In this document: positions 3,637 to 60,530 of the stretch, one piece after another
Layout: the number at the start of each line of letters is the position of its first letter
Numbering within the stretch: position 1 is the first letter of the stretch
Assembly: GCA_028534125.1 (NCBI GenBank)
Contig: CM052850.1
Coordinates: forward strand, 22,878,001-22,942,000
Length of the DNA stretch: 64,000 bases
Reading direction: 5' to 3'
DNA from: Lama glama
Taxonomy: Eukaryota
Program-made: the position numbers and the translations under genes
The notes under the pieces: model-generated
The model's database searches: none
Seen by the model: the letters and a program-made list of their open reading frames with translations, nothing else
Told to the model about the DNA's origin: nothing

Positions 3637-6600
3637 TTATAGGGATGTCTCTTTTGTTTCTCCTGCCTCTTTTGCTGCCACATTTGCTTGTATTTCCATC
3701 TGTCTAAGGGCTTGAATCTCCTGCTGGGGCTTTCTTCCAGATCCTCCTTCTCTGGAGGAGTCTATACTAAGTTCTTGATGCGCTCTTCGGCAGCCAAGGG
3801 TGAAGGCCCCATAGAGGAGAGGATCCAGAGGAGCATTGAGGAGGCCAAAGAGGAAAAGGATGTGGCTGAGGCTGGGAGGCACTTCATTTAGCATGGTGGG
3901 AGAGAACCAGTACCAGAGACCTAGCAGGTAATAAGGTGTCCAGCAGAGGATGAAGGTCAGCAAGACAAGCAGGGCCAGTCGCAGGGCCCGAAGACGAACA
4001 CGGGGACGATTGTCTAAGGAGCGGCGGAGGGTAAATTCACCGGCAGAGGCTGGGAATTTAGAAAACACACTCAAATTCAGAACCACTCAGCTCCTGAATT
4101 GATGAATGGGCATAAATAGAGCTCTCCCCCTCTACAAGGAAGAAAACGCTGCACGCCGCCTTTCCCTTCCCAGCCTAGGACTATATACTCTCCTCCCCCC
4201 AGGGATTATGACAGACATGCTGGGCAAAAAAGGTTTCGATTAAGATGCTGTGTTACATGAAGCTGCCAAGTCTATTTGAAGACTTGTTGGTGTCTAACAG
4301 AAGAATACTGATCCCTTTTCTCCTTATTCTTGCCCAGCTAACTCAACTTCAGAGAATGAAGTTAGAATTGAAGGCATTCAATAACATTATGTGTAGCATC
4401 AGGTGCTAGAGATATGGGTAGTATTTCACTTTTGGTTTGATAGATCACTATCAAATAAATGAGGTTAGAAGCAGTAGGGTATGGGTTAGGGCCTGGGGTC
4501 TGGGGTCTCACCATGGTTCCCCTNNNNNNNNNNNNNNNNNNNNNNNNNNNNNNNNNNNNNNNNNNNNNNNNNNNNNNNNNNNNNNNNNNNNNNNNNNNNN
4601 NNNNNNNNNNNNNNNNNNNNNNNNNNNNNNNNNNNNNNNNNNNNNNNNNNNNNNNNNNNNNNNNNNNNNNNNNNNNNNNNNNNNNNNNNNNNNNCTCGGC
4701 GGACAGTATGGAACAGGAATAGCTAGAATGGAGTTGGGGACTGTTAGAGCTGGTTCCCCTTACCCTCCCCACCAGCCTACCCACCAGTTCAGCAGTATCT
4801 CCTTCCAGTTCATTCTTAATTCTCTGCAGTGCTGAGTAATTGTACATCCATGGTGCCATATTTAAAAGCGTAGAAATGTATCTTGAAAATCCCTCTTCCC
4901 CTTAGGCTATGTTTGTTAAATCTGGAATTTAAAGAATCTTGTCTTCTCAAGGGGTGGGTACAGCTCAGAGGTAGCACATGTGCTTACCGTGCCGAGGTCC
5001 TGGGTTCAATCCCCAGTACCTACATTTAGAACAAAAAGGAAGAAAAACCTTGCCTTTTCAAATACTATTCTAACATTGAACTTCATAAAAGGGTATCTAC
5101 CACCTCACCAACCTTTTGAGCTGAAATGATTTTCATGATGTGAGTGAGTGATTCTGTGAAAACAAGAAATCTTGTATAAAACAGGTGCTGCTAAAATTTC
5201 AGGCCATTTTGCAGCCACTCTGTAAAGTGACCTTTAGTAATAGTCATATGTACAGTAACTATGATGGTGAAACAATGTTAAATAAAATTTAACATTTTCC
5301 AAATGCTGTCGGCTACCCCTTCCCCTTTTTGGCAAACTGCTGGGGTTTTGCTTCGAGTCAGTAGAGAGTATTTTTCAGTTGAGAGCTTCAGGTTGACTAC
5401 CTCGGTTCAGGTAAGGTGGATTGAGTCACTATTAGTTTGATAGAAGGCAAGCTTTGTAGGTATCAGATTCTTAGATATAAGGCATTTTGGAAAGTGATTT
5501 CAGCAAACATGAGGGACTTTTAGGAAAGGTAAATAGTGTCAGTCACAGACATGCAATTAAATGAACTGCTTGGACTTAGGATCAGGCGATTCTAAGTCAG
5601 TTGGGGAGTGGTTTTTCCTCTTCCCCTATCTTGAGTCCATATATTTCGAGGGTTTTGTTTGTTTTGGTGGGGGGGGTGCAGGTTATAGTACACCTAGAAA
5701 TACTTGACACCTTGTGAGAAGGAGTTTAAAATAGGCAGGGGCTCCTGGACTTACATTTTGGTCCATGGCCCCACTTCTGCTTCTTTTCTTATCTGATACG
5801 CAATTTACCATCGACTGTGGAAACCTTTTCAGCTACTTCTGATAACTTGGAAACTCGAGTCTATAAAAATAGTTTCTAACTACAACAATGTTCCCTTCAC
5901 CACACTAACAAAAGAGTTTTTTTACTGACACTAATATTTTAAGTGCAACATGAGGGCAGTGCAGAATTTACATAGGAGGATGCTAATGTGGAACCCAAAA
6001 TAGCACCTTTTGAACCTCAATCATGATGTTACCAGGTTGCTGTTGAAGCAAATGGAGGTTGCACTGTTGTCAGGTTTTCAGACTGTAAGAAAGGATGAAA
6101 TTCATTTGCTATTCCATTATCTTGTGGCCTGTGTATTTCAAGGGATTTAGCCAGTCATACAATTAGTTGTGGTAGAGCCTAGACTCAAAAAGCAAAAGTA
6201 AAACAAGCAAACATCAAAAACAGGCTTCTTCCTAACTCCCAGCCCACATCTAAAATTCGCTTCATATAAATTCAACTGTAACTCCTTTTGCACGGAGGCA
6301 ACAGGCTGCTTTTTAAAACTTGGGGTAGCAGAGGTCCTGTCTGCAACATTCTGTTGGAAGCAATACTTCCTACTTTAGAACTACGGTCAGACTAACTGGT
6401 AGTTAATTTATAATATTTAAGGATTTAAGGGTCAAATCTTAAATCTGGCTCTAGAATGTATTATTCCAGAGGCTGAAATTATAGACTCCGTCCTGACATA
6501 ACCCTAATCCTTGTCTCAGAGATGCTGCTTTACTCCCTCCTCCCGGATAGTGGTAGTGGTTTTGGTTTTGAAAGAATTGCTTTTTTCTAGATTTCTAGTT

Positions 6601-7999
6601 CATTTTCAGTATTGAGATTTGATTAACTGGTCCTCAAGTTCAGGTGCTCCCCCTTTCCCCCGGTTCTGACACCCACCATAAAGTTAGAGTAAAAAATGGC
6701 AAATCTAATTGTCACTCTCTACCTTTTACTTTAGTGTCTCCACTGCCCTCAGGATAAACTACTAGCCTAATATTTGTGATCTGGTTCTTCATTCCCCCCA
6801 GGGCTCATTTTTCACCATTTTCTAGCCCTCATCTTGAGCTGCAACCACTGTGAGATTGTCTACCCTCTACCCTCCCCAGCAGTCCTGCTTTAACTTGTCT
6901 GACTTCCAAGAATCAACTTTCAACGTCTCTGGGAAGTCAGGAAGCTTTCCCTAACAGTCCAAGAGTGGGTCAGACATCTCCATTGTTCTTTAAAAGCTCC
7001 TTATGCTTAGATTAACGCTCGACTACACACTGTGTTCTAATTGCATATTAATTTGACTCTGCACTAGTTTAAAAATTTCTTGGAGGCAAGACTTTGTCGC
7101 TCTATCCTTGATAGAACTTTTGATTGTACCTAGGGGATGCACATTATTTTTTGGATTGATGAATGAATGTACCACAAAGTTTTGTCCAAAGTCACTGACT
7201 TAACTGTCTTCTTCCCATATATGTTTCCTCCCTGCCCTAGAGTTCTGCATCTGAAGAAGGTTGGGAGGGAGGATGCAAAAAGGTGGAAGTCAAGTGTAGT
7301 AAAATCAAAGGCTCTTTACAAAAATACAAATTAACACTCGATGATGGTAACTTGCAAAAGAGATAGCAGAGGCTCCCCCGCTGAGGATTTATGGTGACCG
7401 CGGCCACGCACACCCCTTGAAACCGAAGGCTCATGTTGTATACCCAAATTCTTGTTGAGTCTAGCCGTAAGTGCCGGCAAGTCACTCACCTGGGGCAAGG
7501 CAAGCAGGAAACTAAGTCCCCAGGCTGCCCCCAGAAGTTTCCCTCCAGTTGAGCGGGGTCCAAGCGGGTGGAGTACGGCTGCCTGGCGGTCGAGCCCAAT
7601 GACCACAGGCAGGAAAGCTGCGGCATACATAGCCATTAGTTTCAGGAACATGAGTGTCCGACATGCGATATCCCCGGCCAGCCACTGAACAGTGATATTC
7701 CAGGTGGCATCTAGAGGCATAACCACGAAAGTGACCAGTAAGTCGGCAGCTGCTAAATGAGCAAAGAGTCGTCGTACCGGAGAGGGGCGGAGCTGGCTAG
7801 GTTGCGGCCGTGTCACTGACCACAGCACAGCCAGGTTGCCTCCAGCCGAAGAAATAAACAGCACAACGGTCACTCCCACTCGGACCTTGGCTGCAACTGA
7901 GAAGGTGGGCAGCTCTGAGCCCTCCACTTCTACTCCTGACCCCGCCCAGACCTCCTCCCCTGCTGCTGACCCCAAAGGGGTGCCGTTTCCTGCAGACAT
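3637..7999 (-). CDS. GNRHR2: Type II gonadotropin-releasing hormone receptor, apparently intact, 377 aa predicted, 3 exons
   Basis: Exon 1 7999-7490 (Kozak gtcaccATG; MSAGNGTP...GNLAVL...ADLLVTF...CRTLMFLKL...GLDRQAAV...ALPQ). Exon 2 4722-4512 (LFLFHTVRR...[N 4694-4524]...GNH). Exon 3 4049-3637 (SAGEFTLRR...CWTPYY...EVPPSLSH...DPLLY plus a cytoplasmic tail). 510+211+413=1134 nt, in frame. 171 nt of exon 2 are unreadable. Confidence 0.9.
4951..5042 (+). mobile_element. tRNA-derived SINE (camelid Vic-1-like)
   Basis: A-box/B-box head GGGTACAGCTCAGAGGTAG...GGTTCAATCCCC and an A-rich tail. Flanked by a degenerate target-site duplication: aaagaatcttgtcttctcaa / aaaaaccttgccttttcaa. Confidence 0.8.
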
Positions 8000-9150
8000 G
8001 GTGACCTGGAAAGCCAAGGGATGAGGGGATAAAGTGTGCGTTTGAAGAGATTAGCTGCGTCCGCTGATTCTTCTCCCTCCCTTTTAGGATCTGAAGTTGG
8101 TTATTTAGCGAATTTCGTCCACTAAAGCGTCTGTCTCTGGAGACTCCATCCGTATTCTGGAAGTCACCTGTCCAACCGTCAGGGTCCTGCAGGGAACAGG
8201 AATCTGGTGTAGGCTTCTGCTTCCATTGACTTCTTTAGCGCCCAGAGTCCTGGATTCGGCTGGAGCGTGCGAGTGAGTCAGTGTGTGAACTGGGGGTGTT
8301 CTGCTGAACGCGCTCCAGGGTGGAGGGAACGCTATCCTAGCGGCCCCGGCGAGAGCACTGCGGCACCTTCTGGCCCCGCCCGCATCCTGCAAGCCCCGCC
8401 CTTGGTCCGGACTATTTAAAGGAAAATGTGCCTCTGCAGGCGGGCTTAAGAAATAGAGATAATCTGAAAAAAGGACGCGCTGATGGAGACGCGCGCAAAA
8501 ACACGCAGGTGTAGGCCCAGAGACAAGTGCTGCTCGTTCTGAAATGCCGCTTCAGGGGCCGGCTGCAGGCGCTTTCTGTCCTGATGATGTTTGTCCCTCG
8601 CGCGGCACCGTCGGATCGTCCGGGAGGCGTGACTAGGGGCGGGAAGTGGGGCGGGAGCGGATCTGCGGAGCCGGGGCCGCCGCTGTCATGGACGCCTGGG
8701 TCCGCTTCAGCGCTCAGAGCCAGGCCCGGGAGCGGCTGTGTAGGTGCGGCCCGAAGAGAAGTGGGGGGAGGGCGGGCAGGGGAAGAGCCTCGTGAGGCGA
8801 AGTCAGGTCCCACTACGGGGGTCAGAAAGGGTCAACTCGGGGTACGGGGGCCTGGACGGAACGCGAGGCTCTCTGTTGAGCCGGCTGTGAGGCCATGATT
8901 CGTTTCTGCCCGCGGGAAAGATGGGAAAACTGAGGCACGAGTGGGCCAGCGGGGAGGCCGCTCAGGGTTGCGTGTTGACATGAGACCGACAGTTTCCTCA
9001 CTGGGCGCTGGTGGAACGAGGAGCGTTCGCCCCGTGGCGGATAGCGACCTGGACTCTGTCCCCAGGGCTGACGAGGCGCTCCAAAGTTTCCCTGTCCCCT
9101 CAGCCTTCTGTCACCCGCGAACTCCTCTGTCTCCCCGCCCTGGCTTTTAG
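8000..9150. promoter_or_regulatory. CpG island; shared head-to-head promoter region of GNRHR2 and PEX11B
   Basis: CpG-dense region with GC boxes. The two start codons (7999 minus, 8688 plus) are about 690 bp apart and divergent. Confidence 0.75.
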
Positions 9151-44400: not shown

Positions 44401-47400
44401 GCCCCTGGAGGAGCTGCAGGCCTGCATCAGCGCCCTGGTGGACAGGCATCGCGAGGCCCAGCAGGCGCTGGCTCGGCTGGAAGAGGAAAACCAGCGGCTT
44501 CGAAGTTCCCCTGCCCCACGTGGGGAGCAGGGGGCCTCCTGCAAGGTCTCAGCACCCCCCCAAGTGGCCGCTCTGGAGCAAGACCTGGGGAAGCTGGAGG
44601 AAGAGCTGCGGGCGGTCCAGGCCACGATGAGCGGGAAAAGCCAGGAGATCGGGAAGCTGAAGCAGCTGCTCTACCAAGCCACGGAGGAGGTGGCCGCGCT
44701 GAGGGCCCGGGAGGCCGCCAGTCTGCGGCAGCACGAGAGGACTCGCGGCTCGCTGGTGGCCCAGGCCCAGGCGTGGGGCCAGGAGCTGAAGGCTCTGCTG
44801 GAAAAGTATAACACCGCCTGCCGAGAGACGGGCCGGCTGCGGGAGGCCGTGGCCGAGGAGCGCCGCAGGAGCGGGGACCTGGCGGCGCGCGCCGCGGAGC
44901 AGGAGCGCCAGGCCAGCGAGATGCGCGGGCGCTCGGAGCAGTTCGAGAAAACGGCGGAGCTGCTGAAAGACAAGGTGGAGCATCTGATTGGCGCTTGCCG
45001 GGACAAGGAGGCCAAGGTGAGCAGGCGAAGGAGCTTCAGGGAAGGTTTCTGTGTGTTCAGGGGTCTGCTAACCTGAATTTTCCTTCGGTTCATCAGAGTA
45101 ATCCCCCAAATAGAACACCAGTCATCTGCAAGGACCACGCTCTGTTCTCCTGAGTTTGGGGGGCTTGGGGTTGAGACTGTAGGTGAGGTAAGTCATAAAT
45201 AGAAGAGAGAAGGGGGCTTAGGTATTAAAATTTGGGACTCAGGGTTCAGCAGCAGTGTGCTTAGGGCTACCACCATTGGTTTATTAGGATTTTGACTTAA
45301 ATAGTGTATTTAAGACATCTGATAATACAGCGAGTAGCTATGGTTTTGCTAGGGTTCTGAGGAGGTGACTCCGGGGGCTGAGAGGTTAAGAAAAGTAAAC
45401 TGAGCTATAGCCCCCTTTTCCCCTCCCACTTCAGAGTAGATTCTGCACAAGATTTCCATTGACAAAGAGGGTGCCAATGCAAAGAAAAAAAGCTTGAGAA
45501 CTGTTGTTAGATACCTGAGTTTCCTAATGATTGCTCTAAAATTAAGTGTAAGTCTACATGTTTCTAAGAGACATGTTTTATGAATTCTAAAAAATCAGTT
45601 TACTAATGAATTTAGTAATTCTAGAACTATCTGTGAAAGGAATGAATTTAGACTCATTAAAATGTGTGCACGTGACCAAAGTTAGAATGCTTAAAAATAT
45701 AGGGAGTATACATTTTACATAAGATAAAGTACAGAAAAATAGAAGGGATGTTATACAGAATAGGGATCAGTGTGGCGTGAGGCTAGTTAAAGCAAGGAAT
45801 GTTGTGTTGGTGTTGAAGGAGAAGGTAAAAGTAGAAAAATGGTCAAAAATAAGTAGTGCCGTCAGCTCTGAACTGAGATTATCTGCATTTGAATTTCAGT
45901 TGCAAAACTTACTGTTTGATCTTGGATGAGTTATCGAAGCCTCTAAGCCTCAGTTTCCTCATCATAATTTTCTCATCACCATAAAATGGGGATAATAATA
46001 GAATCATTGTGAGGATTACATTAAATGAGGTATTCTATTAAAAAATACTCAGAAGAATTTTTGTCAAATGGCTAGTACTCAATAAAAGTTAGCTATTTTC
46101 ATTATTCCCATTACCACCATTCCTAATCCTGCTGGTTATCATTCACCGAATTCGTGCCTCAGCCTCACAAGCCATAAAAACTCATCTCCATTTCCCTCAG
46201 TGGTCAGTAGCCAGAAGAAGGCTGGGATCCAGTTCAGAGTTAAGAGCATAGACCATGAATTCAAAGAGATCTTGCTTCACATCTTGATTTTGTCATTTAT
46301 TAGCTGTATGATTTTGACAAATTACTTAACTCACGCTCCTTACCTACAAAATGTGACCAATATGTCCCTCTGAGAAATATTATTCTTGTTGGAACAGAAG
46401 AAGAGCCGTTTTGAGTATGAAGTGAGACAATGAGTGTAAACGTATCTGGCAGATATTGAATACCCAGTAAAATGAAACTGACTTGACTCTGGGTGGGAAA
46501 TGACGGGGCCCTCGTGGGTTCCCTTTCTCTTCTTGTGGCCTCAGATCAAGGAATTGCTGAAGAAGCTGGAGCAGCTCTCAGAGGAGGTGCTAGCAGCTCG
46601 GGGAGAAAGTGCTCGCCTCACCCTACAGCTGCAGGTGTGTTTTGGCCCTCAGGGAGATGTACACTGCTAGAGAAGGGGGTGCACAGTGGAAGTGATATGT
46701 CCATGGGAGAGATTCTGGGGATTCCAGGGGCCCGGCCAGGCAGGCAGTGGTCTAGGCTGAGTCAGGGATGGGCCAGGGGAGCCTACCTGGCACAGCTGAC
46801 CACCTCACCCCATTGTTCCTCATGTTGAGTGTGGGAGGCGGGGCACATGACCTCCCACTGATGCTCACTCCCAGGATTCCCAGAAGAACCATGAAGAGAT
46901 CATCTCCACCTATAGGAATCATCTGCTGAATGCCGCTCAGGTGAGCATCAGAGGAAGCAGAGGTAGAGAGATGGGCAGGCGCACTGCATTTGGGGTCCCT
47001 TCTCTTACCTGCACATTCTTGTCAACTCTCAGAAGGCTGGACTTTAGATATTCCAGTGCCAGGTCTCTGGATCTCAGAGGTAGATCAAGAGAGTTTGTGC
47101 ATGAATGTGAGGGGGAGAGGTGCTTGCCCCTCCTTTTCAAGTCCCTGGTCCACTGTAAGGCTTTTTCCTGAAAAAGAGGTGGGTGGCTTGCTCCTTTATT
47201 AGGAAAAATAATAAACTACAAAGAATCAAACGCTTATTATGCACTAGGTGCTTTGTAACTCCCACAGCCATCTGGAAAAGTAGACATGGTTATCTTCCTT
47301 GTAAAGATTAGGAAACAGCCATTGAGAAGTTAAGTACCATAAGCGAGGGCACATAGTTGGTAAGCACCATTCTACTACACCACAGAAACTCTCCCACTTT

Positions 47401-47498
47401 CTGTTCTCCTTTTGTTTCTTTCCTGCCACCTACAGGGCTACATGGAACAGGATGTGTACAATATCCTACTGCGAATCCTCAGCATGCAGGAGGAGTGA
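33282..47498 (+). CDS. ANKRD35: Ankyrin repeat domain protein 35 (UACA/RAI14/ANKRD24 family: ankyrin repeats plus long coiled coil), 1002 aa, 13 coding exons
   Basis: Exons 33282-33320, 38455-38585, 39354-39442, 39802-39866, 40677-40734, 40930-41000, 41260-41366, 42003-42187, 42807-42844, 43010-45016, 46545-46634, 46875-46940, 47436-47498 (sum 3009 nt). MKRIFSCSSSQVAVERWNRRDQKLLEAV..., ANK motifs (STALHLA, RSPLHWAA, GRTPLMIA), C-terminus ...HEEIISTYRNHLLNAAQGYMEQDVYNILLRILSMQEE*. Confidence 0.96.
41448..41477. repeat. (TG)n microsatellite
   Basis: About 15 uninterrupted GT units in ANKRD35 intron 7. Confidence 0.9.
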
Positions 47499-48053
47499 GG
47501 CAGCCTGTGCCCTGAAGAACATGCTGTGAGTCGTGGGTTGGGAGAAAGGGCTTGGGAGACGAAGCAGAGGGATGGATGGAAACTGGAGTCTCCTTTTGCC
47601 CCATGTGGTAGCTGACACTAGGGGGTCCTGTGGGGCATAGAGCATTCGAGGTGAGGTCAATTGAGAAACCCTGATATGGGGAATCACTGGGTGGAGTCAG
47701 GAGTCAGTGAGGAGATGGACTGAAGGGGTCTGACTTATGCAATGGAGGCTGAAAAGAGGAGTTGAGTGACTCTCCTAAAGTCTGGGGTATAGACACCAGT
47801 GAAAGATGAGTAATGGTGGGACAGTGGTGCCCAGTTGTTTCCCAGTGTGGTACTCTACAAATTCCGGAATCCCTCCCTCACTCCCTCACCACTCATTCAG
47901 TGTGGTCATCCTCCATTCTCCTCCCTGCTTCCATGCAGTTGGCTGTCTTCTCCAGTCCAAAGAGATGAGGATCATCTTTAGCATCTCGGTGTGGGTGGAG
48001 GAGACTGAGGGTATGGAATTATGTGCATTTCACCCTTGAATTTCTTCTTTCAG

Positions 48054-48260
48054 GGAACAGAGCATCCTTGGTTGCCAAAGGCTCCATCAGGCTGTGGTGG
48101 GTGGTGGGTTGGCCACTGAGGGTAGTGTGTGTGGGGCTTCACCTGATGATTTGAACCCCAGACCTGAGAATCTGAACCCTGGAACCAGCATGGATGAAAC
48201 CGGAGAAGGTGTGGTTGGAAGGCAGCACTAAGGAAAATAAAGCAGCAGGCAGGATGATGT
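48054..48260 (+). other. Non-coding terminal exon of ANKRD35
   Basis: Donor GCT|gtgagt at 47526, acceptor tttcttctttcag at 48053, AATAAA at 48236-48241. Confidence 0.7.
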
Positions 48261-48318
48261 TGGGTGTCTGGTTTTTTTCCTCTCTAAAAGGGAGTTGGGG
48301 AAGCGGCCTCATAAGTTA

Positions 48319-48491
48319 GCTGCTTTCAGACTTTGATTATGATCCATAGTAAGAAATACATTTTACATCCTGTGTGTACATACCTGAAATAATATTTACC
48401 CTTACTATTTCTATTCTATTCTGTATTCCATCAAAAAAATATTGGTTACAACACCTCCACTGAAGGGTCAAGACTCAGTCTGAAAAACAGC
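48319..48491. mobile_element. Short non-autonomous DNA-transposon remnant (MER/hAT-like)
   Basis: Imperfect terminal inverted repeats gctgctttcagact ... agtctgaaaaacagc around an AT-rich core. Confidence 0.45.
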
Positions 48492-49392
48492 AAAAATGAG
48501 GTTTGACACACTTCCTTTCTCCTTCTCAAGTCTGTCTTTACTGACTGACACAGCTCTGGTCTTTTTTCTCTACCTTTGGACTCCTGAGTCCACTAGCATT
48601 TTTAATAAAGAGCAATTGAGAGACCTGGATTTTCTTCAAGACGTACAGTCTTAAATATTCTCTCGTGTGTTAAACCAAGTATCTAGATTTGAGGTACAAG
48701 GTCTCTTGTGGTCAGTGTTCTTTGTTCTTGGGTGCAAAGAGGGATGAAAAGTCTTGATTCCTAGAAAAGGGATAAAGGGATACTCAGAGCTGGCTTCTTC
48801 CCTCCAGTTCTGTTCTCAGGCTGAAAAAATGTATCTCTCTCGGCCACTTCCCCTGGGTCTCCTCCCCTTCCTGCCTCTCCGCCAGCGGTCCAGACTGTTA
48901 GGTGGGAGTGAGGCAGCGAGCTCCTCCAAAATCTGGAATTGCCGTTTGGTGGCCCCCACACTGATCCCCCCATCCCTCTCTCAGCCCGCCCCCTTCTGGG
49001 TTCTGCTGGGCCAGCCCGCGGATTTGGGGTTTGGCAGTACAGAAACTGACTGGGCCGAGAGAAGAGTGGGAGGAGCGGCCAAGGAAGACTGGGGCCCCGG
49101 CGGGGTGGGGGCAGGGGGATGGGGGCGGGGGCAGGGAGCGGAGTTGGGGGGCGGGGGGGCAGGGAGGGGAGCGGGGGCGGGACAGTGGCGCGGGGAGTGG
49201 GTGGAAGCTGCAGAGCCTGGCTCCAAGGTTTGGCCAGGAAGAGAGCAGCTATGTAGATGAGTTGCTAGAGAAGATGAGAGTCAGCTCTGGTGTTTGTGTG
49301 AATGGGTCTGGGAGAATGCAGAGAGGACAGACTGATGGAGAAAAAGAAGGGTGCAGCTGCCAAAAGAGCATCAAAAGGTCCAAGCCATTTCT

Positions 49393-49497
49393 TTCTTTCT
49401 TTCTTTTTTTAATTGAAGTATAGTCAGTTTACAATGTTGTGTCAATTTCTGGTGTACAGCCTAGTGTTTCAGTCATACATATACATGCATACATACC
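49393..49497 (-). mobile_element. Heavily 5'-truncated LINE-1 3' end with TSD
   Basis: Poly(T) then AATTGAAGTATAGTCAGTTTACAATGTTGTGTCAATTTCTGGTGTACAG. Flanks caagccatttct / caagccatgtct. Confidence 0.75.
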
Positions 49498-50313
49498 CAA
49501 GCCATGTCTATTAAGGGGAACAGAACCTCTCTTTTCCTTCCTGCTCTTAGAGTTACCAAATAATAGAAAAGGATTTACTTTCCATATAATATATGTGGTG
49601 TGGTGTCGGAAGAATGAAGAAACTGCGGAGAACAGGGTCCAGAGAGGGGCGGATCATTTTGTGCAGTTCAAGTACGAATCAGGAAACAACTTTGGTAATG
49701 GAAGTCAGGGCTTTGGCTTCCTCTGCGGCTCCTGAAGCCGATCCCAGGATGGCTGAGCTGTGGGAATGGTTAATGTTAATGTTAATGTTAACACAGAAAT
49801 GGAACTTTCTCCAGCTCCTGGTCTTCCTAAGCAGCCTTTCTCTAGACACCCCCATAAATTGTTACCTCAATAACTCCAAGCCCTGACAGTTTCCTTGATT
49901 TCATAAATAAATCTTTCTTTCCCAAAGTAACTGTAGTCTTTATGTTCCCCTCTTTCCTCTTGGGCTGTCTGTTTACTGGGACTTCAGCAGGGACTAATTA
50001 CTCCTGTTTTCACTCCTCTTCGTTCTCCCGGCTTTAGATGTAGGAGTGTATGCAGGAGAGTAGGTGAAGCCTGGTGAGCCATGATGGGGTTCAGACTATG
50101 TTTTTGAATGCCCTCCATCTGAAACGTGGTCCTGATTTGCAGCTTCTATCCTTTGTCTGGTAACAGTAATTTATTAAACGGAGATTTAAAGGGTCTACTA
50201 TGTGCCCGGCACTGGGGATAGAGCGAGCTTGCATGCAGGATCAGATTCAGGTACCCTGGTTCCTAGTTTTACGTTATACTGTAGGGATGCTAGAACTTAT
50301 AATCTCAATTAAC

Positions 50314-50538
50314 TTTTTTTTCTTCTTGTGAATTGTTTTTATTAGGATAGAGGGGATGGGTTGGGAAATATCTCTGTGGATTGTGCTGCATCAGGGAAAT
50401 GTCCTTTCCAATCTTCCTGGGATAGCTTTTGGAACTTTTTCTTTTTCTTGGAGCTGTTGCTCTTGCTGCCAGCAGCCTCTTCAGGTCCACTGCTGAGCAG
50501 CTCCTCCTTGGAAGAGAATTTCCTCTTTTTCTTGGGGA
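50314..50538 (-). pseudogene. 5'-truncated processed (retrotransposed) pseudogene fragment of NOP56
   Basis: Minus strand translates PKKKRKFSSKEELLSSGPEEAAGSKSNSSKKKKKFQKLSQED, which I recognise as the NOP56 C-terminus. It is followed by a short 3'UTR, AATAAA (50343-50338), an A-rich tail and a degenerate TSD (ctcaattaa 50304-50312 / ctcaaattaa 50539-50548). Confidence 0.85.
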
Positions 50539-50609
50539 CTCAAATTAATTATTAAAGGAGATTCCCGCCCCCCCCATGAAATCATTAGAAATCAAGGTGA
50601 TGTTGACTT

Positions 50610-50790
50610 TCTTTTTTTCTTTTACATTTTACAGCTTTATTGAGGTATAATTGACATACAATAAACCACATGTAAAGTGTGTAGTTTGATAAATTTTGAC
50701 ATATGTATGGGCCCATAGAACCATCACACCATCAAGGTAATGAACATATCCGTCACTCCCAAAGAGTTACCCCATCTCTCTCCCTGAAAC
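50610..50790 (-). mobile_element. Old LINE-1 (L1M-like) 3' end fragment
   Basis: TTTTACAGCTTTATTGAGGTATAATTGACATACAATAAAC... after a T-rich tract. Confidence 0.65.
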
Positions 50791-51839
50791 CACTGAAAAT
50801 TCTAGAAGATACAAACTAGTCCATAGTAACTTTTGATCTAGTGGACTTAAGAGAACAGAAAAATAAGCTCAGGGCCTGAGGCAGACTCAAGTGTTGGAGG
50901 GAGCAGTTGGGATTTAGAACCAAATACTTGAACTTGAGTTCCCACCATTGCTGGCAGCAGAGCAGCAAGGTGAGGACTTGAGTGTCAGGAGAGGGTGGAT
51001 ATCCTCCTTAGGGATAAAATCTGCAATGTAGATGGGCACGATCTAGTTCAACAGGTACCTGGGGATATTGTCCTATAGCTGTGAGGTCTCATGGGAAAGA
51101 TTATACTGAAGGTTTAAGCTAAATGTGAGGATTATTCATATTGTTTACTAAAGCACTCTTTGTTTGCTAGTTATTGGTTTAACCATCTTGTCACTGATGC
51201 TAGACTGAGAACTCTTGCAAGGATTTTATGTCCTCAGCACCTAACATTCTCTGAACAGCATTCAAATATTAATTGAACAAGACAGTTATCACTTAGGTCC
51301 CAGCCAACTAATGTGAAATTCTGTGAGTTTTCAACTACCTATTTTGGGTAAACTGCTCTAAAGTTGGTACTTTCAAGGGATCTGCCTGTGAATGATGAGC
51401 TTAGTTGAGACTGGGGCCTCTGGAAAGTCTAAGGCTTTGGAGGAAGGATAGTAAAAGCAGTTCAGACTGTCAGAAAGATGCCTTTTTTGGGTGAGAAAAC
51501 TTCCCTTCTGTTTGCCTTCAGCTACAGCAAAAGTGTGTGGTCTCTGGTAAGTCTTTGTATTTGAGGTAGAGGGTAGGAGACCACAGGTAGAGTTAAGGTT
51601 TAGGTACACTTTGGATTTTAGTAGCCCAGGTTTTCTTTCCCTTAGGGAGAGTGCCTCATTCTAAGTAGGCACCTCTGTATGCTATCAGATTCCCGATCCA
51701 CAGTCTTCTTTGCACCTTGCCTCCACCCCAAGCGCATACAGCAGCACAAGGGTCAGAGCAGTAGTGAGAATGAATAAGATCCAAGAACGACTCTCTCGAT
51801 CCACTCACTAGAGGAGTTAATCTTTCCAGGGCCTGCCTC

Positions 51840-53120
51840 TGAGTCCTTCCCTCTCCCGCCTCAGACTCCGCCCCTCCCCACTGCTCCGCGGTCCTGGCGG
51901 GCTTACCCGGGAGAGGGCGGCCCCAGCCCCAGCCCCAGCGCTGGGCCGGGCGGAGCTCCCGCCCAGGAGGAGCTGCGGCTGCAGCGTCCAGCTGCCGGAC
52001 TGACCTCGAGCCGTGCTGACCGCGGGAGCGGCGCCGGGCCCCCTCCCCCCCACCGTCCCAGCCCACCCTCTGAGCCGTCTGAGCCCCCTCCCTGCTCCCT
52101 GCCACTGCACTGGTAAGTCCCGCGCTCCGCACCAAACTTTTTTGCTGCGGAGTTCTACCGCCAGACCACGAGCTACACTGTGGGGGGGGGGAGGGGAAGG
52201 GGTGAAGAATTGAGACAAGCCTTCTTGAAATGATCTATTCACGACTCCATAGCTTCCCGAAAATGGATCAGATCTCCCCGTTTCCCGAGTTGGTATAACT
52301 CTTGATTTTAGCTGGTTAAACTTGTAGTGAGGGAGATGAGGGTATCTGTTCCAACTTCGCTACACCCTCTCCCATTTCTCTGAGATGTAGCACTTCTCGA
52401 TACTTTCCCTCCACATTTCAAGTACCTTTGGCTCCCTAAAAGCTCATCCCCTCCCCATTCTGCCGTGGCAAAGCCCCCTCTCCCAGGTACTTCGGGTCCA
52501 CCTTCTCCGCATTTTCCTGGAGACCCCGCGATCCTTCGGGCTGTTCACTCCCTCCGGGTCTACCGGTCTTGCACACCGGCCAAAGACGTGCAGGGGCTGG
52601 GTCCGGCTGTGGAGGGAGGGGCTGAAGCTGGGGCTNNNNNNNNNNNNNNNNNNNNNNNNNNNNNNNNNNNNNNNNNNNNNNNNNNNNNNNNNNNNNNNNN
52701 NNNNNNNNNNNNNNNNNNNNNNNNNNNNNNNNNNNNNNNNNNNNNNNNNNNNNNNNNNNNNNNNNNNGCTCGGGCGCCTGCGATGTCTCAAGATGGCGGA
52801 GCTGGGCGAATTAAAGGTACCGGCCCCCTCCCCCATCCCCATCTGCACTGAACCCGGCAGAGCGCCGAGTCAGGGAAGCGACCGAGACGGGGTGCCGAGG
52901 GCTCGGTGGGGGCTGGAGACGTGGCGGGGACTCTCTGCTGGGGATGGGAGAAGTGGCTACGGGCGAGGTAGGGGCTGCGGCGGGACTCCGGGGGCGGGGC
53001 CGCGGGGCAGATGCAGGGGTGGGGCCGAGGGAATTGCAGCTGTTGGGGGCCGAGGCGCAGGGGGCGGGGACGCGGGGTAGAAGTTGGATTTGGTGGTAGG
53101 GGCAGATGCTGGGGTAGGGT
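51840..53120. promoter_or_regulatory. Bipartite CpG island at the PIAS3 5' end
   Basis: Two CpG-dense blocks (about 51840-52200 and about 52480-53120). YY1-like CAAGATGGCGG over the PIAS3 ATG. N-run 52636-52767 hides part of the 5'UTR. Confidence 0.75.
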
Positions 53121-56100
53121 CAGGAGGAAAAGCTGCTTCAGAGGCACTGGGCGCGAGTCGATCAAGGCCCAGAGATTCGACAGTAGGGGGCACATGTTGG
53201 GATGGGACTGTGGGGCAGAGGTACGGAAGGCTCCAGGGGGAAATGCGCTGAGAGGATAGAGGCTTTGGGGCTGCTGTTGGGATCTGAGCCTTGGGAAGTA
53301 CCAGTAGGCGGCTGAGATCTAGGGGGCGGGGCTGTGCGGGCGGATAGATCGAGGGGTGGGGCAGAAGCATCCTGGAGGCTGAGAGGGAGGTCCTGCCTTA
53401 GTGAGTCGGGATCTTTGGGCAGAGACAGAGGAGTGTGAAACTACGGGATAGGAAGGGAGAAGTTCTTGACAAAACTAATGGAGAAATAAAGACAGAACAG
53501 AGGAAATAAGGATGGGGAGAGAGGCAGAGGAGCAAGTTTTTAATCACATTCCTCAGGAGGAGCCCAAAGCCATAACACCGCCGGAGGTGAAGAGCCGTGG
53601 AGGGCTAGCAAGGCCTGCCCGAGGCCGGGCCTCCTAGAGACTCGCAGAAGGGAATCCTTTAAAGAGAGAGCTTGCCACGACCACACAGACTCTTGAGAAT
53701 AACTATCCAAGGACAACATGACAGAACCTTTAAGAAGCACTGGGTTCATTTCCCTGCTTCTTGGCTTTATGCTGCCCTTTGAAATGGAGCCACAGCCTTG
53801 GGCAGGCTTGAGGTCTAGTCACTGGGCCCAGTGTGAGATTCTGCACCTTGGCTTAGGGGCCCCATGCCTGCTCCTCATTCTCCAGGGCCTCTGTTGAGAG
53901 CTTTGCCCTTTCTTCTCCCGCCCCTCTGGCGGAGGGGGAGGATCACTTCTCTCTGTGCAGGAGAGAAGCAGAATATTGGTTCCTGGCAGATGGAGTAAAC
54001 AGGTAGACAGGAAGGGTAGATACCTAGATGCCCCATTTTGCTGTGAACACCCTCACTCCAAGTTTTGGTCCTGCCTCCCTCCCAGAAAAATAGGGCTGAG
54101 GGAAGGGTAGTTATGTTAATGACAGTGAGAAAGGATCTGGGGGCGTTCTGAGCATTGAACCCTGACCTGAAAACCCTGGTTACAAAAGCTTCAGAGGCTT
54201 GGGGAAAAGAGCTGAGGTGGATTGAGGTGTTGGGAGGGGTGGGCTGAGTGGCACAATCCTCCAGCCACCTGGCCCCTTTCTCCCCTGTGGAGCTATCTGG
54301 CCTGAATCCTCTTCTCCCCCTCCTTCTCCCTGTCTCCTGTCCTCTTCCCAAGAGGCTGGGATGGGTCTGAGAGTCTGAGAAAGGGCAGGAGAGGAGATAA
54401 GCAGCTTAACGGAGAGTCCAGGCTCAAGGCAGGAATGGAGGTGGGCCGCGGAAGTGGACTCAGAGGTGTGCTTTAGGATGGCCTGCTGTCTGCACCCTGT
54501 CCTCACCTGGTCGACTTCCAGGCTGGGGGAGATGGCGTTGCTCAGGCTCTGGGGGTAATGGTGAGGCTGGCCTGAGGGTTGCTAAAATGGGACGTAGAGG
54601 TCCTTTTGGTCATATTTGCAGTCATCCACTGGCTGCAAAGCACCTCTCTGATTAGTGCTGGATGCGTAGAGGCACTGCCCACCTAGCAGCTCAGCCCAGT
54701 GTCCTTGCCAGGACAGGCCTGTGCAAGGTAGGGTTCTCAAGCTTCTCTGCTCTCCACAGCACATGGTGATGAGTTTCCGGGTGTCTGAGCTCCAGGTGCT
54801 CCTCGGCTTTGCTGGCCGGAACAAGAGTGGACGGAAGCACGAGCTCTTGGCCAAGGCCCTGCACCTCCTCAAGTCCAGCTGTGCCCCCAGCGTCCAGATG
54901 AAGATCAAAGAGCTTTACCGGCGACGCTTTCCCCGGAAGACCCTGGGGCCCTCTGATCTTTCCCTGCTGTCTCTGCCCCCTGGCACCCCTCCTGTAGGCT
55001 CTCCTGGCCCTTTAGCTCCCATCCCCCCGGCCCTCTTGGCCCCTGGCACCCTACTGGGCCCCAAGCGTGAAGTGGACATGCACCCCTCTCTGCCCCAGCC
55101 TGTGCACCCTGATGTAACCATGAAACCGTTGCCCTTCTATGAAATCTACGGGGAGCTGATCCGGCCCACCACCCTCGGTATGGCTGTTTGTGATCCCTCA
55201 GTCTTCCCGGATCCCATGCCTCTTCCACAGGCCTTTCTTAGGCTTTAGTCCTGTGGGCTCAGCAGCCCAGGATAAGGGCAACTTCTGTGGCTGCCTGTGC
55301 ATGGGCTTGGGAATAACTGCTCCTTTGTGTTCTCAGCATCCACTTCTAGCCAGCGGTTTGAGGAAGCTCACTTCACCTTTGCCCTCACCCCCCAGCAAGT
55401 GCAGCAGATTCTTACATCCAGGTACATCGCTTTCAGTCCTCCTGCTTCCTCCTTGGGTAGTTACCCTTAGACTCTTAGACTCCGCTCTCTGACTGTCTTC
55501 TCTTCTGCCCTGCTCCTTCCTCTCCATCTTCCTGCCCCTGCTTTGCCTCTGATTCTCTCGTATGCCTCTTCTCTGTCCCTGGTGTCTCTGTCTGTTCACC
55601 CCTCCCCTCCGGGGAACACATACTGACATCTTTTCTCTCCCTGTTCCAGAGAGGTTCTACCAGGAGCCAAATGCGATTATACCATACAGGTGCAGCTAAG
55701 GTGAGTCGATCCTTCCTCTCTGCTGGGCTCCCATGGAGGGTGGGAATGAAATAAGGGTATGACAGGTCCTACTAGGAGATATCCCTGCTCTTCCACACCC
55801 ACCCCCGCCCTGGGACTCTTTTCTGGAAACTGAAGACTACAGATATCCATCACTGATTTACTGAGGTTCCCTGCCTCTCTCTGAGATTCAGTTCAAGAAA
55901 CTGCCTCCCACCCTTTCATCTTCTCTCATCTCTTACCAGGTTCTGTCTCTGTGAGACCAGCTGTCCCCAGGAGGATTATTTCCCCCCCAACCTCTTTGTC
56001 AAGGTCAACGGGAAACTGTGCCCTTTGCCGGTAAGTGCTCTTCCCTTCTTCTGGCAGTAACCCCTTCCCTGTTTCAGTTCCTAGATGTTAATTACAAACC

Positions 56101-59100
56101 TATTATGAAAGAGACATGCCTGGCACAGTGCCTGGGACATAGTAGGTGCTCAGTTTACTGACTGAATCAGTATAATCTAGTGAGTCCTAAGACAGGGCTG
56201 GACGAGCGTTCTGTTTGAATCCAGAGGAGGAGGGACATTGGTTTAACCCAGAGGTTGAGGGAAGATTCTCGGAAGTGATGCGCCCAGAGCTGAGAGTTGG
56301 AAGAAGTGGGGTCTCCTTACTCTTACCCATGCTCCTCAAGAGCTCAGTGAGCAGCTTCCTATTTCTTTGGCCATTGAATAAGCTCTCTCCTTTTCCGCCG
56401 GGATTGAACCCTAGGTAGTGCCCCAGCTTTGTGAGTCACTGAATGGGCCCCCATCTCCTTGGTCAGTGGGTGAGCTGACCGCCCCAGGGAGCAAGGAGCC
56501 TAAGGCAGGATGTCTTGACCAGGCCCTCCCTTCTCCAGGGCTACCTTCCCCCTACCAAGAATGGGGCTGAGCCCAAGAGGCCCAGCCGCCCCATCAACAT
56601 CACGCCCTTGGCTCGACTCTCAGCCACTGTTCCCAACACCATCGTGGTCAACTGGTCATCTGAGTTTGGACGGGTGAGCGTGGTGGAGGCAGGGAGCCTG
56701 GGAAAGCCTGCAGGGGGCGAGAGGGAGTCACCCAGTGTCTTGGGCTGCAGAAATACCTTTCTCTTTATGGGTCTCTCTGCCTTAGCTTGCTGTCTCTGGC
56801 CCTCTTGTGACAAAGGAGGGGGTGTTGGTGGGGTGGTGGTGGTGTGCAAAGCAGAGGCTAATTGTTTCTCCCCACCTCCAAGTAGAATTACTCCTTGTCT
56901 GTGTACCTGGTGAGGCAGTTGACTGCAGGGACCCTTCTACAAAAACTCAGAGCCAAGGGCATCCGGAACCCAGACCACTCCCGGGCACTGAGTGAGTAGC
57001 AGCCTGTCCCTCTTCTCCTCTCTGCCCTGGAGCCAATTCTTCCTGGCCCTCCAGCCTTCATAATTAAACTCACACCCGCCTTGTGACACCTGCCTCACCT
57101 CTCACATGAACCCCAACCCTCCCCCTGTGTCCCTTACTGATCTCTGTGGTTGCAGAGTCGGACCATTCCCAGGCACTGAGTGACACCCCTGCATTCCCAG
57201 TTACACATCGGCTTTGCACCGCACAGACCCTGACTCCAGCCCCGGCTGGAACATGGGTTCTTCAGACTAGAAAGAGTCTTAAGTATCATCTAATCTAACC
57301 CTCTTGGGATGTTTCAGTTCCCTCTAGGTCATCTCTACCAAAGCGTCACCTAGCTGTATTTAAGCATCTTCAGGGGCTTAGTGGGGGGGTTGAAGGGAAT
57401 CCCTTCCTCCCACGTAGCCTTCATAATCCAGATCACAGACTGCCCCCACGTGACATCCCATTGGCTCCCAAAGGGCTTCTTCCCACTTGTCTCTCAGCCA
57501 GAGTCATCTGTTTCTTCCCACCCTTGGGCTTCTATCCAGCCTTGCTGACCCCATGGCTCTGGCCCTACTCTTGTTACAGTCAAGGAGAAACTGACTGCTG
57601 ATCCGGACAGTGAGGTGGCCACCACAAGTCTCCGGGTGTCACTTATGTGCCCGGTGGGTACAAGGGAGAAGAGAAAGGGTGGAGGGTTGGGTTAAGCCTC
57701 TGGACTCAGATGTGGGTTCCTCAGGCTGTTAGAGTGAGGCTCCCTGGGACGTGGGGACTCTGACCTCTGAACTCATCTCTCCTCAGCTAGGGAAGATGCG
57801 CTTGACTGTCCCTTGNNNNNNNNNNNNNNNNNNNNNNNNNNNNNNNNNNNNNNNNNNNNNNNNNNNNNNNNNNNNNNNNNNNNNNNNNNNNNNNNNNNNN
57901 NNNNNNNNNNNNNNNNNNNNNNNNNNNNNNNNNNNNNNNNNNNNNNNNNNNNNNNNNNNNNNNNNNNNNNNCCTTTTGCCTTGGACAGTCCACTAGGACT
58001 CTCTCTCTCTCTATGGCTATATACGTTTACATATAGCTTATTTCTCCTCCCATGAATCCCAACTCGTAACCTATTTGTCTCCTTTATATAAATATAATGT
58101 ATATATGTATATAAAATCTGTCCCCTTTATTATATGGATGTATCTCCAACACTGAGGACTACTCCATACCAGGCACCCTGCTGAGCGCTTTGCATATCTT
58201 ATCTCACTGAATCTTGTGAGATGCCGGTAACCCTGTGAGATGGGTACTGGCATTATTGGTGAGAAAACTAAGGCCTGGAGAGACTAAGTATCTCTTCTTT
58301 CTTTCTTTTTTTTTTTTGAGATTGAGTATCTTGCTCAAAGTTATATTGTTAGTAAGTGGCAGAGCCAATGTATCGAATGCATTTCCTGTAACAACCACCT
58401 GACCTCTCACTGAGCGCAGCAATCTAGTTCTTTGAGGGCCTGGATGTGCTGTCTTGCTGTTCCTAATCCGCCTCCAGAGCCTACATTATGATTCGTATTC
58501 CCAGTGCCTTTTTGAGGTGGTTTACAGAGTTCTGTATCCCCGCTCCTTCTGTCTTGTCCTTAGTACTACACGGAACAGGTGCTTAGAATGTATTTATTTT
58601 AAAACTTAGCACTCAAAGTTTTCGAAGCTCTTTTACACACCTTACTTTATTTGATTCCAACAACAACTCAGAGAGGTCATTAGGGTGGATACTATCCCTG
58701 ATTTACAGATGAGGAAGCTGAGGTTCAGGAAGGTGAGTCCCAGAGCTCCCTGGCTGCTATTCTAGCCATCTCCCGGCCACATGAGTTCCCATCTCTCCTT
58801 TCCCCCAGTTTATTCATGGAGATTCTTAATTCCTGCTCGGATTGTGATGAGATCCAGTTCATGGAAGACGGATCCTGGTGCCCAATGAAACCCAAGAAGG
58901 AGGCATCTGAGGTTTGCCCCCCGCCAGGGTATGGGCTGGATGGTGAGTGACCCCCTGTCTCCCAGTTGAGCTGAGTCTGGGGTGGCCTCTTCTCTGAGAC
59001 ATAGTCTTCTTACTACCCACAGCTGTCCAGTATAGCCCAGTCCAAGAGGGCAATCCATCAGAGAATAAGAAGAAGGTTGAAGTGATTGACTTGACAATAG

Positions 59101-60530
59101 AAAGCTCATCAGATGAGGAGGACCTGCCCCCGACCAAAAAGCACTGTCCTGTCACCTCAGCTGCTATCCCAGCTCTACCTGGAAGCAAAGGGTACGAGGA
59201 AGTAGGCTGAATCTACAGCAGAAGGGGCAGGGAAGACGTCGGGGGTGCTTTCTGATCACTGGGCAAACCCTGGGGCACAGAGGGGACTTGGGAGGCAGAG
59301 CTGCGTGAGGGCATCTGTGTTTCCTTCTCTCCTCACAGAGTCCTGACGTCTGATCACCAGCCATCCTCGGTGCTGCGGAGCCCTGCTGTGGGCACGATGG
59401 GCGGCGATTTCCTGTCCGGTCTCCCGCTACACGAGTACCCACCTGCCTTCCCACTGGGGGCTGATATCCAAGGTATGACGCTGATCACAGGGTGGGGCCC
59501 TGCACCGCCACAGCCTCCCCAGAACCGGCTCAGAGCCCTTGCTCCTTTTCAGAGCTTTCTGGCCGTCTCGCAAAGGGCCACAGTCCACGGAACTTGTTTG
59601 AGTGTTTTGTTTGCTTGTTTTTGGTGGTGAAGGGGCCAGATAGGAAGTTAATTTTAATTTTTCTTTTCTTACCAGGTTTAGATTTATTTTCTTTCCTTCA
59701 GCCTGAGAGTCAGGTAAGTAGCCCCTTCTCCTCCCATGAACATCTCAGATCTCTGAAGCTTCCTTTCTAGGCACTGAGGGCTCCCCCCTATTTTCCCCAG
59801 GGGACCTAAATCTGCCTATTTGTGGAGGAGAGGGGGCAGTACAGGCAGTTTATTTCCCTCCTAGGCCCCACTGGGACTGCCTCGGATTCTCACCCGTGTC
59901 CTCCTCTGTCCTCTATTACTTACTGTTCTGTCTCCAGAGTTCTTGGCGCAGTTCTGCTCCTGTCTGCTCACCCCTCAAAGCCATATGCACTTGAGCACCA
60001 CGACTGCCCCAGCCGGACATTCCACACATTTCACACGCCCACAGGGCCAAGAACCTAGCAGGCTGGTGGGGCTGGGAAGGCAGGGAATAGGGGTAGGGTG
60101 CGGGGAAGTGGGGAAAGAGTCAGGGAGAGGCGCTCCTGCTTCTCAGAGAATACCTTGGGATCCCAAGGGGTTGATTCATCCCATATGATATTTCTGAGAC
60201 AAGGGATTGGGAGGCGGGGACAGCCCAGATGATCTCTTAAACCATGCTCTTGATTCCTCCCAGCACTACGGTCCCTCTGTCATCACCTCACTAGACGAAC
60301 AGGATGCCCTTGGCCACTTCTTCCAGTACCGAGGGACCCCTTCCCACTTTCTGGGCCCGCTAGCCCCCACGCTGGGGAGCTCTCACCGTAGCACCACTCC
60401 AGCACCCCCTCCTGGCCGCGTCAGTAGCATCGTGGCCCCTGGGGGGACCTTAAGGGAGGGGCACGGAGGACCTCTGCCCTCAGGTCCTTCTTTGACCGGC
60501 TGTCGGTCAGACATCATTTCCCTGGACTGA
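52793..60530 (+). CDS. PIAS3: E3 SUMO-protein ligase PIAS3, 628 aa expected, 14 exons
   Basis: Exons 52793-52816, 54760-55177, 55337-55421, 55650-55700, 55940-56030, 56539-56673, 56886-56991, 57580-57653, 57787 to about 57947 (3' part in N-run 57816-57971, end inferred), 58809-58942, 59023-59191, 59339-59472, 59676-59713, 60264-60530. SAP domain (RVSELQVLLG), PINIT motif, SP-RING start (SLMCPLGKMRLTVPC), SIM VEVIDLT, C-terminus RSDIISLD*. Confidence 0.97.

Follow-up and report, generated by a model that had tools for sequence, protein, structure and literature searches.

In the interval between ANKRD35 and PIAS3 of Lama glama, a five-exon, minus-strand gene, decayed or non-coding, had been proposed at 48601..52135 of the 64,000-nucleotide stretch of contig CM052850.1 considered here (the window). 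On the evidence presented below, this supposed gene is probably not a real one. Instead, its exon-like segments are most likely chance pseudo-exons in ordinary non-coding and regulatory DNA, lying between the 3' end of ANKRD35 and a probably bidirectional PIAS3 promoter. The region behaves as ordinary promoter-upstream DNA carrying pseudo-exons, with three retro-insertions within an otherwise single-copy stretch. At most, a probable antisense RNA would issue from the PIAS3 promoter.

The landmarks of the original prediction were all located as claimed, namely, the donor after 51907, the acceptors before 51521, 51072, 49757 and 49264, the donors after 50946 and 49579, the quoted peptides and stops, and ATTAAA at 48606-48601. 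The terminal open frame (49264-48761) was likewise confirmed, comprising 167 residues and a stop. The idea that these landmarks form a multi-exon chain beyond what chance provides was not borne out, given that splice scores are weak except at 51907 and that the density of exon-like pairs equals that of control DNA. The segments that follow the first donor are:

51371..51521, minus strand: segment 2, probable pseudo-exon whose acceptor is weak and which lacks a good donor; a stop at 51375-51373 closes the quoted frame
50946..51072, minus strand: segment 3, probable pseudo-exon and the most coding-like piece (GC content at third codon positions, GC3, 0.67); one TAG at 51045-51043
49579..49757, minus strand: segment 4, probable pseudo-exon with TGA at 49681-49679 and ATG at 49657
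48761..49264, minus strand: terminal segment, an open frame over a small patch rich in CpG and GC boxes (about 49000-49200); a CTCF-like motif lies at 48986-48999

Splice signals and pseudo-exon density

Splice sites were scored using a matrix whose training set comprised 18 donors and 19 acceptors from PIAS3 and ANKRD35, genes the exons of which were delineated by hand from the window, with true sites being scored leave-one-out. The first eight PIAS3 exons so defined join into 328 codons with zero stops, while the other two exon sets contain one stop each in the right frame. As background, the minus strand of 16000-47500 and 53000-60500 was used (39 kb; 1812 GT and 3435 AG). This strand is presumably antisense to plus-strand genes throughout, the 16-42 kb part included.

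The donor after 51907 scored 9.0 bits (8.96), a value reached by 0.7% of the background GT, and was the sole strong site of the proposed chain. The donors after 50946 (4.4 bits) and 49579 (5.6 bits) were matched by 10.4% and 6.6% of the background GT, respectively, and two candidate donors for segment 2 were both weak (1.7 and 2.4 bits). For the acceptors, the fractions of background AG scoring as high were 15.6% for 51521 (0.7 bits), 22.6% for 51072 (-1.5 bits, with an alternative acceptor at 51078 scoring 5.3), 13.0% for 49757 (1.4 bits) and 4.6% for 49264 (5.9 bits). Because the matrix is small, these single-site scores are rough. Higher-scoring minus-strand acceptor-like sites (9.2-13.6 bits) were found outside the proposed chain, at 49331, 49049, 48760 and 49622, with that at 49331 sitting in the block best conserved with another mammal (23/28 residues; see below).

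When exon-like acceptor-donor pairs were counted, 41 were found in the 3.3-kb region, corresponding to 12.4 per kb, as compared to 12.5 per kb in the 39-kb control strand. A stricter cut left three pairs (0.91 per kb, versus 1.85 per kb in the control), none of which was a proposed exon. Pseudo-exons are a familiar concept in mammalian non-coding DNA, and the present segments resemble them in being exon-size acceptor-donor pairs of weak score and of a density seen in control DNA; only the strong 51907 donor sets the locus apart.

Two further signals cited in favor of the chain proved to be of little use. The described phase compatibility between the 51907 donor and segment 2 says nothing, since the frame of segment 1 is not fixed by any start codon, and the tandem branch-like motifs before 49757 correspond to a 6-bp microsatellite of 3.8 copies.

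Reading frames, the terminal patch and relatives elsewhere

No continuous spliced frame beginning at a start codon was obtained in eight splice models of the proposed gene, in each of which every frame ran into 8-11 stops beyond exon 1. The original prediction overlooked the longest ATG frame of the splice variants, which spans 120 codons from 49657 in segment 4 into the terminal segment. The codon score of segment 3 fell within the top 1.5% of 132 unselected windows, among which are also windows of coding DNA. In a scan that allows for choice of the best frame, this score was matched by eight clusters in 12 control stretches (about 42 kb), with 6/12 stretches containing at least one such cluster. 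These stretches are imperfect controls, with several being antisense to real exons and one including a real minus-strand exon near 3637-4086.

The Pro-rich terminal frame, described as open for 168 codons, is a by-product of a GC-box-rich patch. Over some 200 bases (about 49000-49200), the GC content is 0.73 and the observed-to-expected ratio of CpG (CpG o/e) is 0.68, and three GC boxes are present. All six frames of the patch scored alike in the codon model, the plus strand opposite the frame has a run of 170 open codons, and a length of 168 codons was reached by 5-10% of 1000 composition-keeping local shuffles. The Pro-rich frame would be the complementary strand of a G-rich patch that has retained its CpG and is likely a cis-regulatory element, a reading to be preferred since loss of CpG would be expected in a coding exon dead for a long time. 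The CTCF-like motif at 48986-48999, containing one mismatch to the consensus and being one of six such matches in the window versus 1.7 expected, lends weak support to a regulatory role. The terminal segment is single copy in the genome.

The other proposed segments are also single copy, yielding only self matches at E below 0.8, as is true of any unique DNA, with segment 2 having no paralogue below E 1.5. Hence, no functional paralogue that could have served as parent was seen in the same genome, as would be the case for a unitary pseudogene. A credible Pfam family was assigned to 0/8 peptides. Word-based protein searches confirmed 0/64 candidates for the segment 4 peptide, 0/61 for residues 58-167 of the terminal frame and 0/1 for the segment 3 peptide. 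These negatives are weak because the tool missed a true relative of segment 4 of 56-66% identity within its length range (P0003, below). PDB sequences contained no relative of segment 3, and its frame is absent from the ESM Atlas. An Rfam scan of 45000-54000 returned one match, far below its cut-off, and pattern matches sought as orthologous loci in metagenome contigs were confirmed in 0/56 and 0/201 instances. Finally, 11 RNA or guessed-RNA runs contained 5-12% of the region's words; this may stem from repeats or from the presumed NOP56 piece considered later, and is no evidence for transcription.

When the segment 4 peptide was run with HMMER against the full set of 1.84 billion representatives, one match was obtained, P0003, the cluster of which includes 11 members from ENA or Logan records. 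The alignment of P0003 runs unspliced over 49866-49309 and takes in both flanking 'introns', so that P0003 is a gene-caller frame from the genomic DNA of another mammal; the word-based searches and this HMMER pass thus provided no coding relative of the segments. In the ESM Atlas, P0003 has a predicted local distance difference test (pLDDT) score of 0.34 and no match of 0.9 or more. Once a final block of 10 poorly aligned residues had been left out, identity was 81/112 residues in the flanks and 37/56 in segment 4 (one-sided Fisher p 0.84 for the exon exceeding the flanks), and simulation showed both values to fit about 15-17% neutral DNA difference. The conservation of former exons above introns expected of a unitary pseudogene was, therefore, not seen in this comparison of one segment with one other mammal. 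Moreover, the frame matching P0003 switches within segment 4 and once more close to the donor of that segment.

Five of the 11 cluster members end one residue before the window's TGA, while six read W at that position, which suggests a TGA shared with the other mammal and read under two genetic codes, although polymorphism is possible. A selenocysteine reading of this TGA was set aside, as chance will often preserve a triplet when identity is about 85% and the frame shifts nearby.

Taken as a unitary pseudogene that would survive intact in other mammals, as originally put forward, the structure finds no backing in an orthologous stretch that lacks conservation of exon over intron, is frameshifted in segment 4 and apparently shares the stop, nor was a parent or paralogue found. 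By the GENCODE definition, a unitary pseudogene has an orthologue that is coding at the syntenic position of another species (PMC3491395). The locus is like such pseudogenes, and like lncRNAs (long non-coding RNAs) that have lost coding capacity, in offering exon-like pieces with scattered stops beside the promoter of a conserved gene, but unlike them in that a syntenic coding orthologue, as called for in both cases, was not found, the one orthologous stretch seen being non-coding (PMC3491395; PMC5577775). Judged by the features tested, the locus does not appear to be a recent unitary pseudogene.

The PIAS3 promoter and rival explanations

Upstream of PIAS3, the following region likely serves as a bidirectional promoter:

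51850..52150, no strand: CpG-rich sub-island, the upstream one in the PIAS3 promoter region, GC 0.70-0.71, CpG o/e 0.56-0.63

Here, a pair of strong donors faces outward at a spacing of 205 bp, one on the minus strand after 51907 (9.0 bits) and one on the plus strand after 52112 (9.2 bits), making a divergent RNA from the CpG island plausible. Of 2000 dinucleotide shuffles of an interval that was chosen after the sites had been seen, 2.0% contained a plus-strand donor of 9.0 bits, 6.6% a minus-strand donor and 0.25% both. The PIAS3 start codon follows about 680 bases downstream of the plus-strand donor (52112-52113), which probably ends an upstream non-coding first exon of that gene. The second reading offered originally, namely, a divergent lncRNA, accordingly survives in part. 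A first exon ending in a strong outward donor at the CpG island edge is plausible, and a shared CpG promoter with such a donor, as expected of lncRNAs of this kind, is seen at the level of sequence. The downstream exon chain, however, is at chance level, the splice signals of the internal exons not rising above background.

In the mechanism that we propose, RNA polymerase II would start in both directions inside 51850-52150, with the plus-strand RNA using the 52112 donor as part of an upstream PIAS3 exon. The minus-strand RNA would meet a single U1 site at 51907 and then four poly(A) hexamers (50641, 50343, 50175 and 49413), all before the proposed end at 48606, and so would mostly be cut short and degraded, or else be spliced at low level to any cryptic acceptor. 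Works on this U1-poly(A) signal (PAS) axis reportedly include those of Almada in 2013 and of Wu and Sharp in 2013. U1 sites stabilize and poly(A) signals destabilize divergent promoter RNAs, such that the two control promoter direction (PMC6172195). With the promoter upstream transcripts (PROMPTs), upstream antisense RNAs (uaRNAs) and divergent lncRNAs of bidirectional CpG promoters described there, the locus shares a CpG island, an outward U1-type site and poly(A) hexamers beyond it; it differs in that its transcription is a prediction from sequence and in having its first hexamer about 1.3 kb beyond the donor.

That a stable, spliced divergent lncRNA arises from the sub-island, joining the 51907 donor to some of the proposed acceptors or to other, stronger ones, is rather unlikely. 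The strong outward-facing donor pair and the four stronger minus-strand acceptors left unused by the chain would accommodate such an RNA, the exons of which, as is established, need display neither coding signal nor conservation. Nonetheless, the proposed exons are no better than background, the four hexamers intervene before the proposed end, and such an RNA is not named in the literature searched: work on ANKRD35 and PIAS3, as judged by titles and abstract openings, contained nothing on the interval, and no PIAS3 antisense or promoter RNA was named, as judged partly by titles. Still less probable is a young, lineage-specific open reading frame (ORF) within a spliced divergent transcript, corresponding to the 120 codons that start at 49657 and cross the 49579>49264 junction. 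While this putative ORF is present in 8/8 splice models and its Met is matched in the other mammal, most of it lies in the low-complexity GC patch where all frames run long, and back-translation points to the 49579 donor being weaker or lost in the other mammal (Glu-Cys-Tyr versus Glu-Ser-Lys). We consider this possibility very improbable.

The remains of a protein-encoding gene placed head-to-head with PIAS3, and dead before the split of this species from the other mammal, are an improbable source of the segments. The apparently shared TGA and the equal divergence of exon and flank match what early death predicts, and segment 3 has both its GC3 of 0.67 and a frame-specific codon score. Set against this, the segment 3 score recurs eight times in the control strand, and the single HMMER match is a genomic frame. 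Because similarity to the lost gene can seldom still be detected in fossil lncRNAs, one example of which is divergent to its neighbor, a much older loss is possible (PMC5577775). PIAS3 and ANKRD35 were absent from the searched supplements of three gene-loss or PhyloCSF papers (PMC5577775, 4 files; PMC6886504, 9 files; PMC10195156, 1 file), a weak negative, as the tables may list identifiers or coordinates. A fuller version of this history would have a gene head-to-head with PIAS3 die early in placental mammals and survive as a spliced divergent RNA, with the last exon doubling as a CpG-rich regulatory element and an intact marsupial or reptile copy lying between ANKRD35 and PIAS3; we hold this to be slightly less probable again than the early death just considered.

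Several points weigh against chance pseudo-exons as the explanation. The splice matrix is based on just 18 and 19 sites. The comparison with the other mammal covers segment 4 and its flanks in one lineage, via translation, over 56 residues. That mammal seems to keep residues over the 49757 acceptor and the Met matching 49657, and its frame closes with the three residues and the stop that are found at the 49264 acceptor. Segment 4 mismatches are slightly more conservative (mean BLOSUM -0.28, n=18) than those of the flanks (-0.58, n=31), and segment 4 lies in a bin with a CpG o/e of 0.58. In addition, the quoted frames of segments 2 and 3 and the alternative terminal frame are each the best of their three frames, and a single-exon ankyrin gene beside the window, taken as a control for vertebrate proteins, was not in the protein collection searched. 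The kept acceptor, Met and frame end, and the more conservative mismatches, do not, however, exceed what is expected at 85% identity.

As chance pseudo-exons, the segments matter little beyond offering a worked case of exon chains read into mammalian intergenic DNA. PIAS3 is a regulator of the STAT3 pathway, and a divergent RNA, if true, would add one more promoter-associated lncRNA at such a regulator. A syntenic intact gene outside placental mammals, if true, would mean that a gene loss had gone uncatalogued in a gene cluster that is well studied.

Retro-insertions and neighboring genes

Three insertions lie in the 'introns' of the proposed gene, all minus-oriented with A-rich tails and each bringing a poly(A) hexamer. 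These, together with a pair of hexamers at the proposed end, are:

50600..50790, minus strand: end of an old interspersed repeat with AATAAA (50641) and an A-rich tail; of 645 candidates, 40 were scored, among which the 39 non-self matches are 74-82% identical
50314..50539, minus strand: 5'-truncated retro-copy of an mRNA 3' end, presumably of NOP56, with AATAAA (50343) and a short A tail
49389..49496, minus strand: young retro-insertion with ATTAAA (49413) and an A-rich tail, its 9-bp target-site duplication lying at 49505 and 49388
48601..48609, both strands: a minus-strand ATTAAA (48606-48601) overlapped by a canonical plus-strand AATAAA (48604-48609)

For the young insert, 40 of 1624 candidates were scored, and these included 39 non-self matches that are 90-97% identical. 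The insert and its duplication together equal a 39-residue gap in the alignment with P0003, from which it follows that the insert is absent from the other mammal. Both this insert and the older repeat at 50600-50790 are presumably of the L1 type.

Across 216 bases, the fragment at 50314-50539 shares 76% identity with the last exon and 3' untranslated region of a spliced gene (L011/L016) that contains Nop domain exons and hosts SNORD56, 57, 86, 110 and SNORA51; this small nucleolar RNA host gene we take to be NOP56. At least five further copies, the parent included, are found elsewhere in the genome (L007-L011), with L010/L017 presenting a near-identical end without the last intron. The fragment has the parent and tail of a processed pseudogene, although its target-site duplication is weak (8 bases with 1 mismatch). 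It thus resembles a 5'-truncated processed pseudogene fragment, comprising an mRNA 3' end, poly(A) signal and A tail with the parent elsewhere, but at only about 225 bases accounts for one insert and not for the proposed segments.

The plus-strand AATAAA at 48604 lies 0.55 kb past the acceptor at 48054, taken as the start of the last ANKRD35 exon, and is a possible distal poly(A) signal of that gene.

Within PIAS3, a short near-duplicate (57156-57183, plus strand) of an exon end (about 56965-56995) was noted, by eye only, in the following intron. Elsewhere in the window, two minus-strand open frames at 7331-8050 and 3637-4086 resemble the first and last coding exons of one gene, which we take to be that encoding the type II GnRH receptor, GNRHR2, a gene disabled in many mammals. 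The single-exon ankyrin-repeat gene beside the window (L019, 6437-7927, plus strand) has a frame of 496 codons and is presumably ANKRD34A-like, the human protein, at roughly 535 residues, being longer than this frame.

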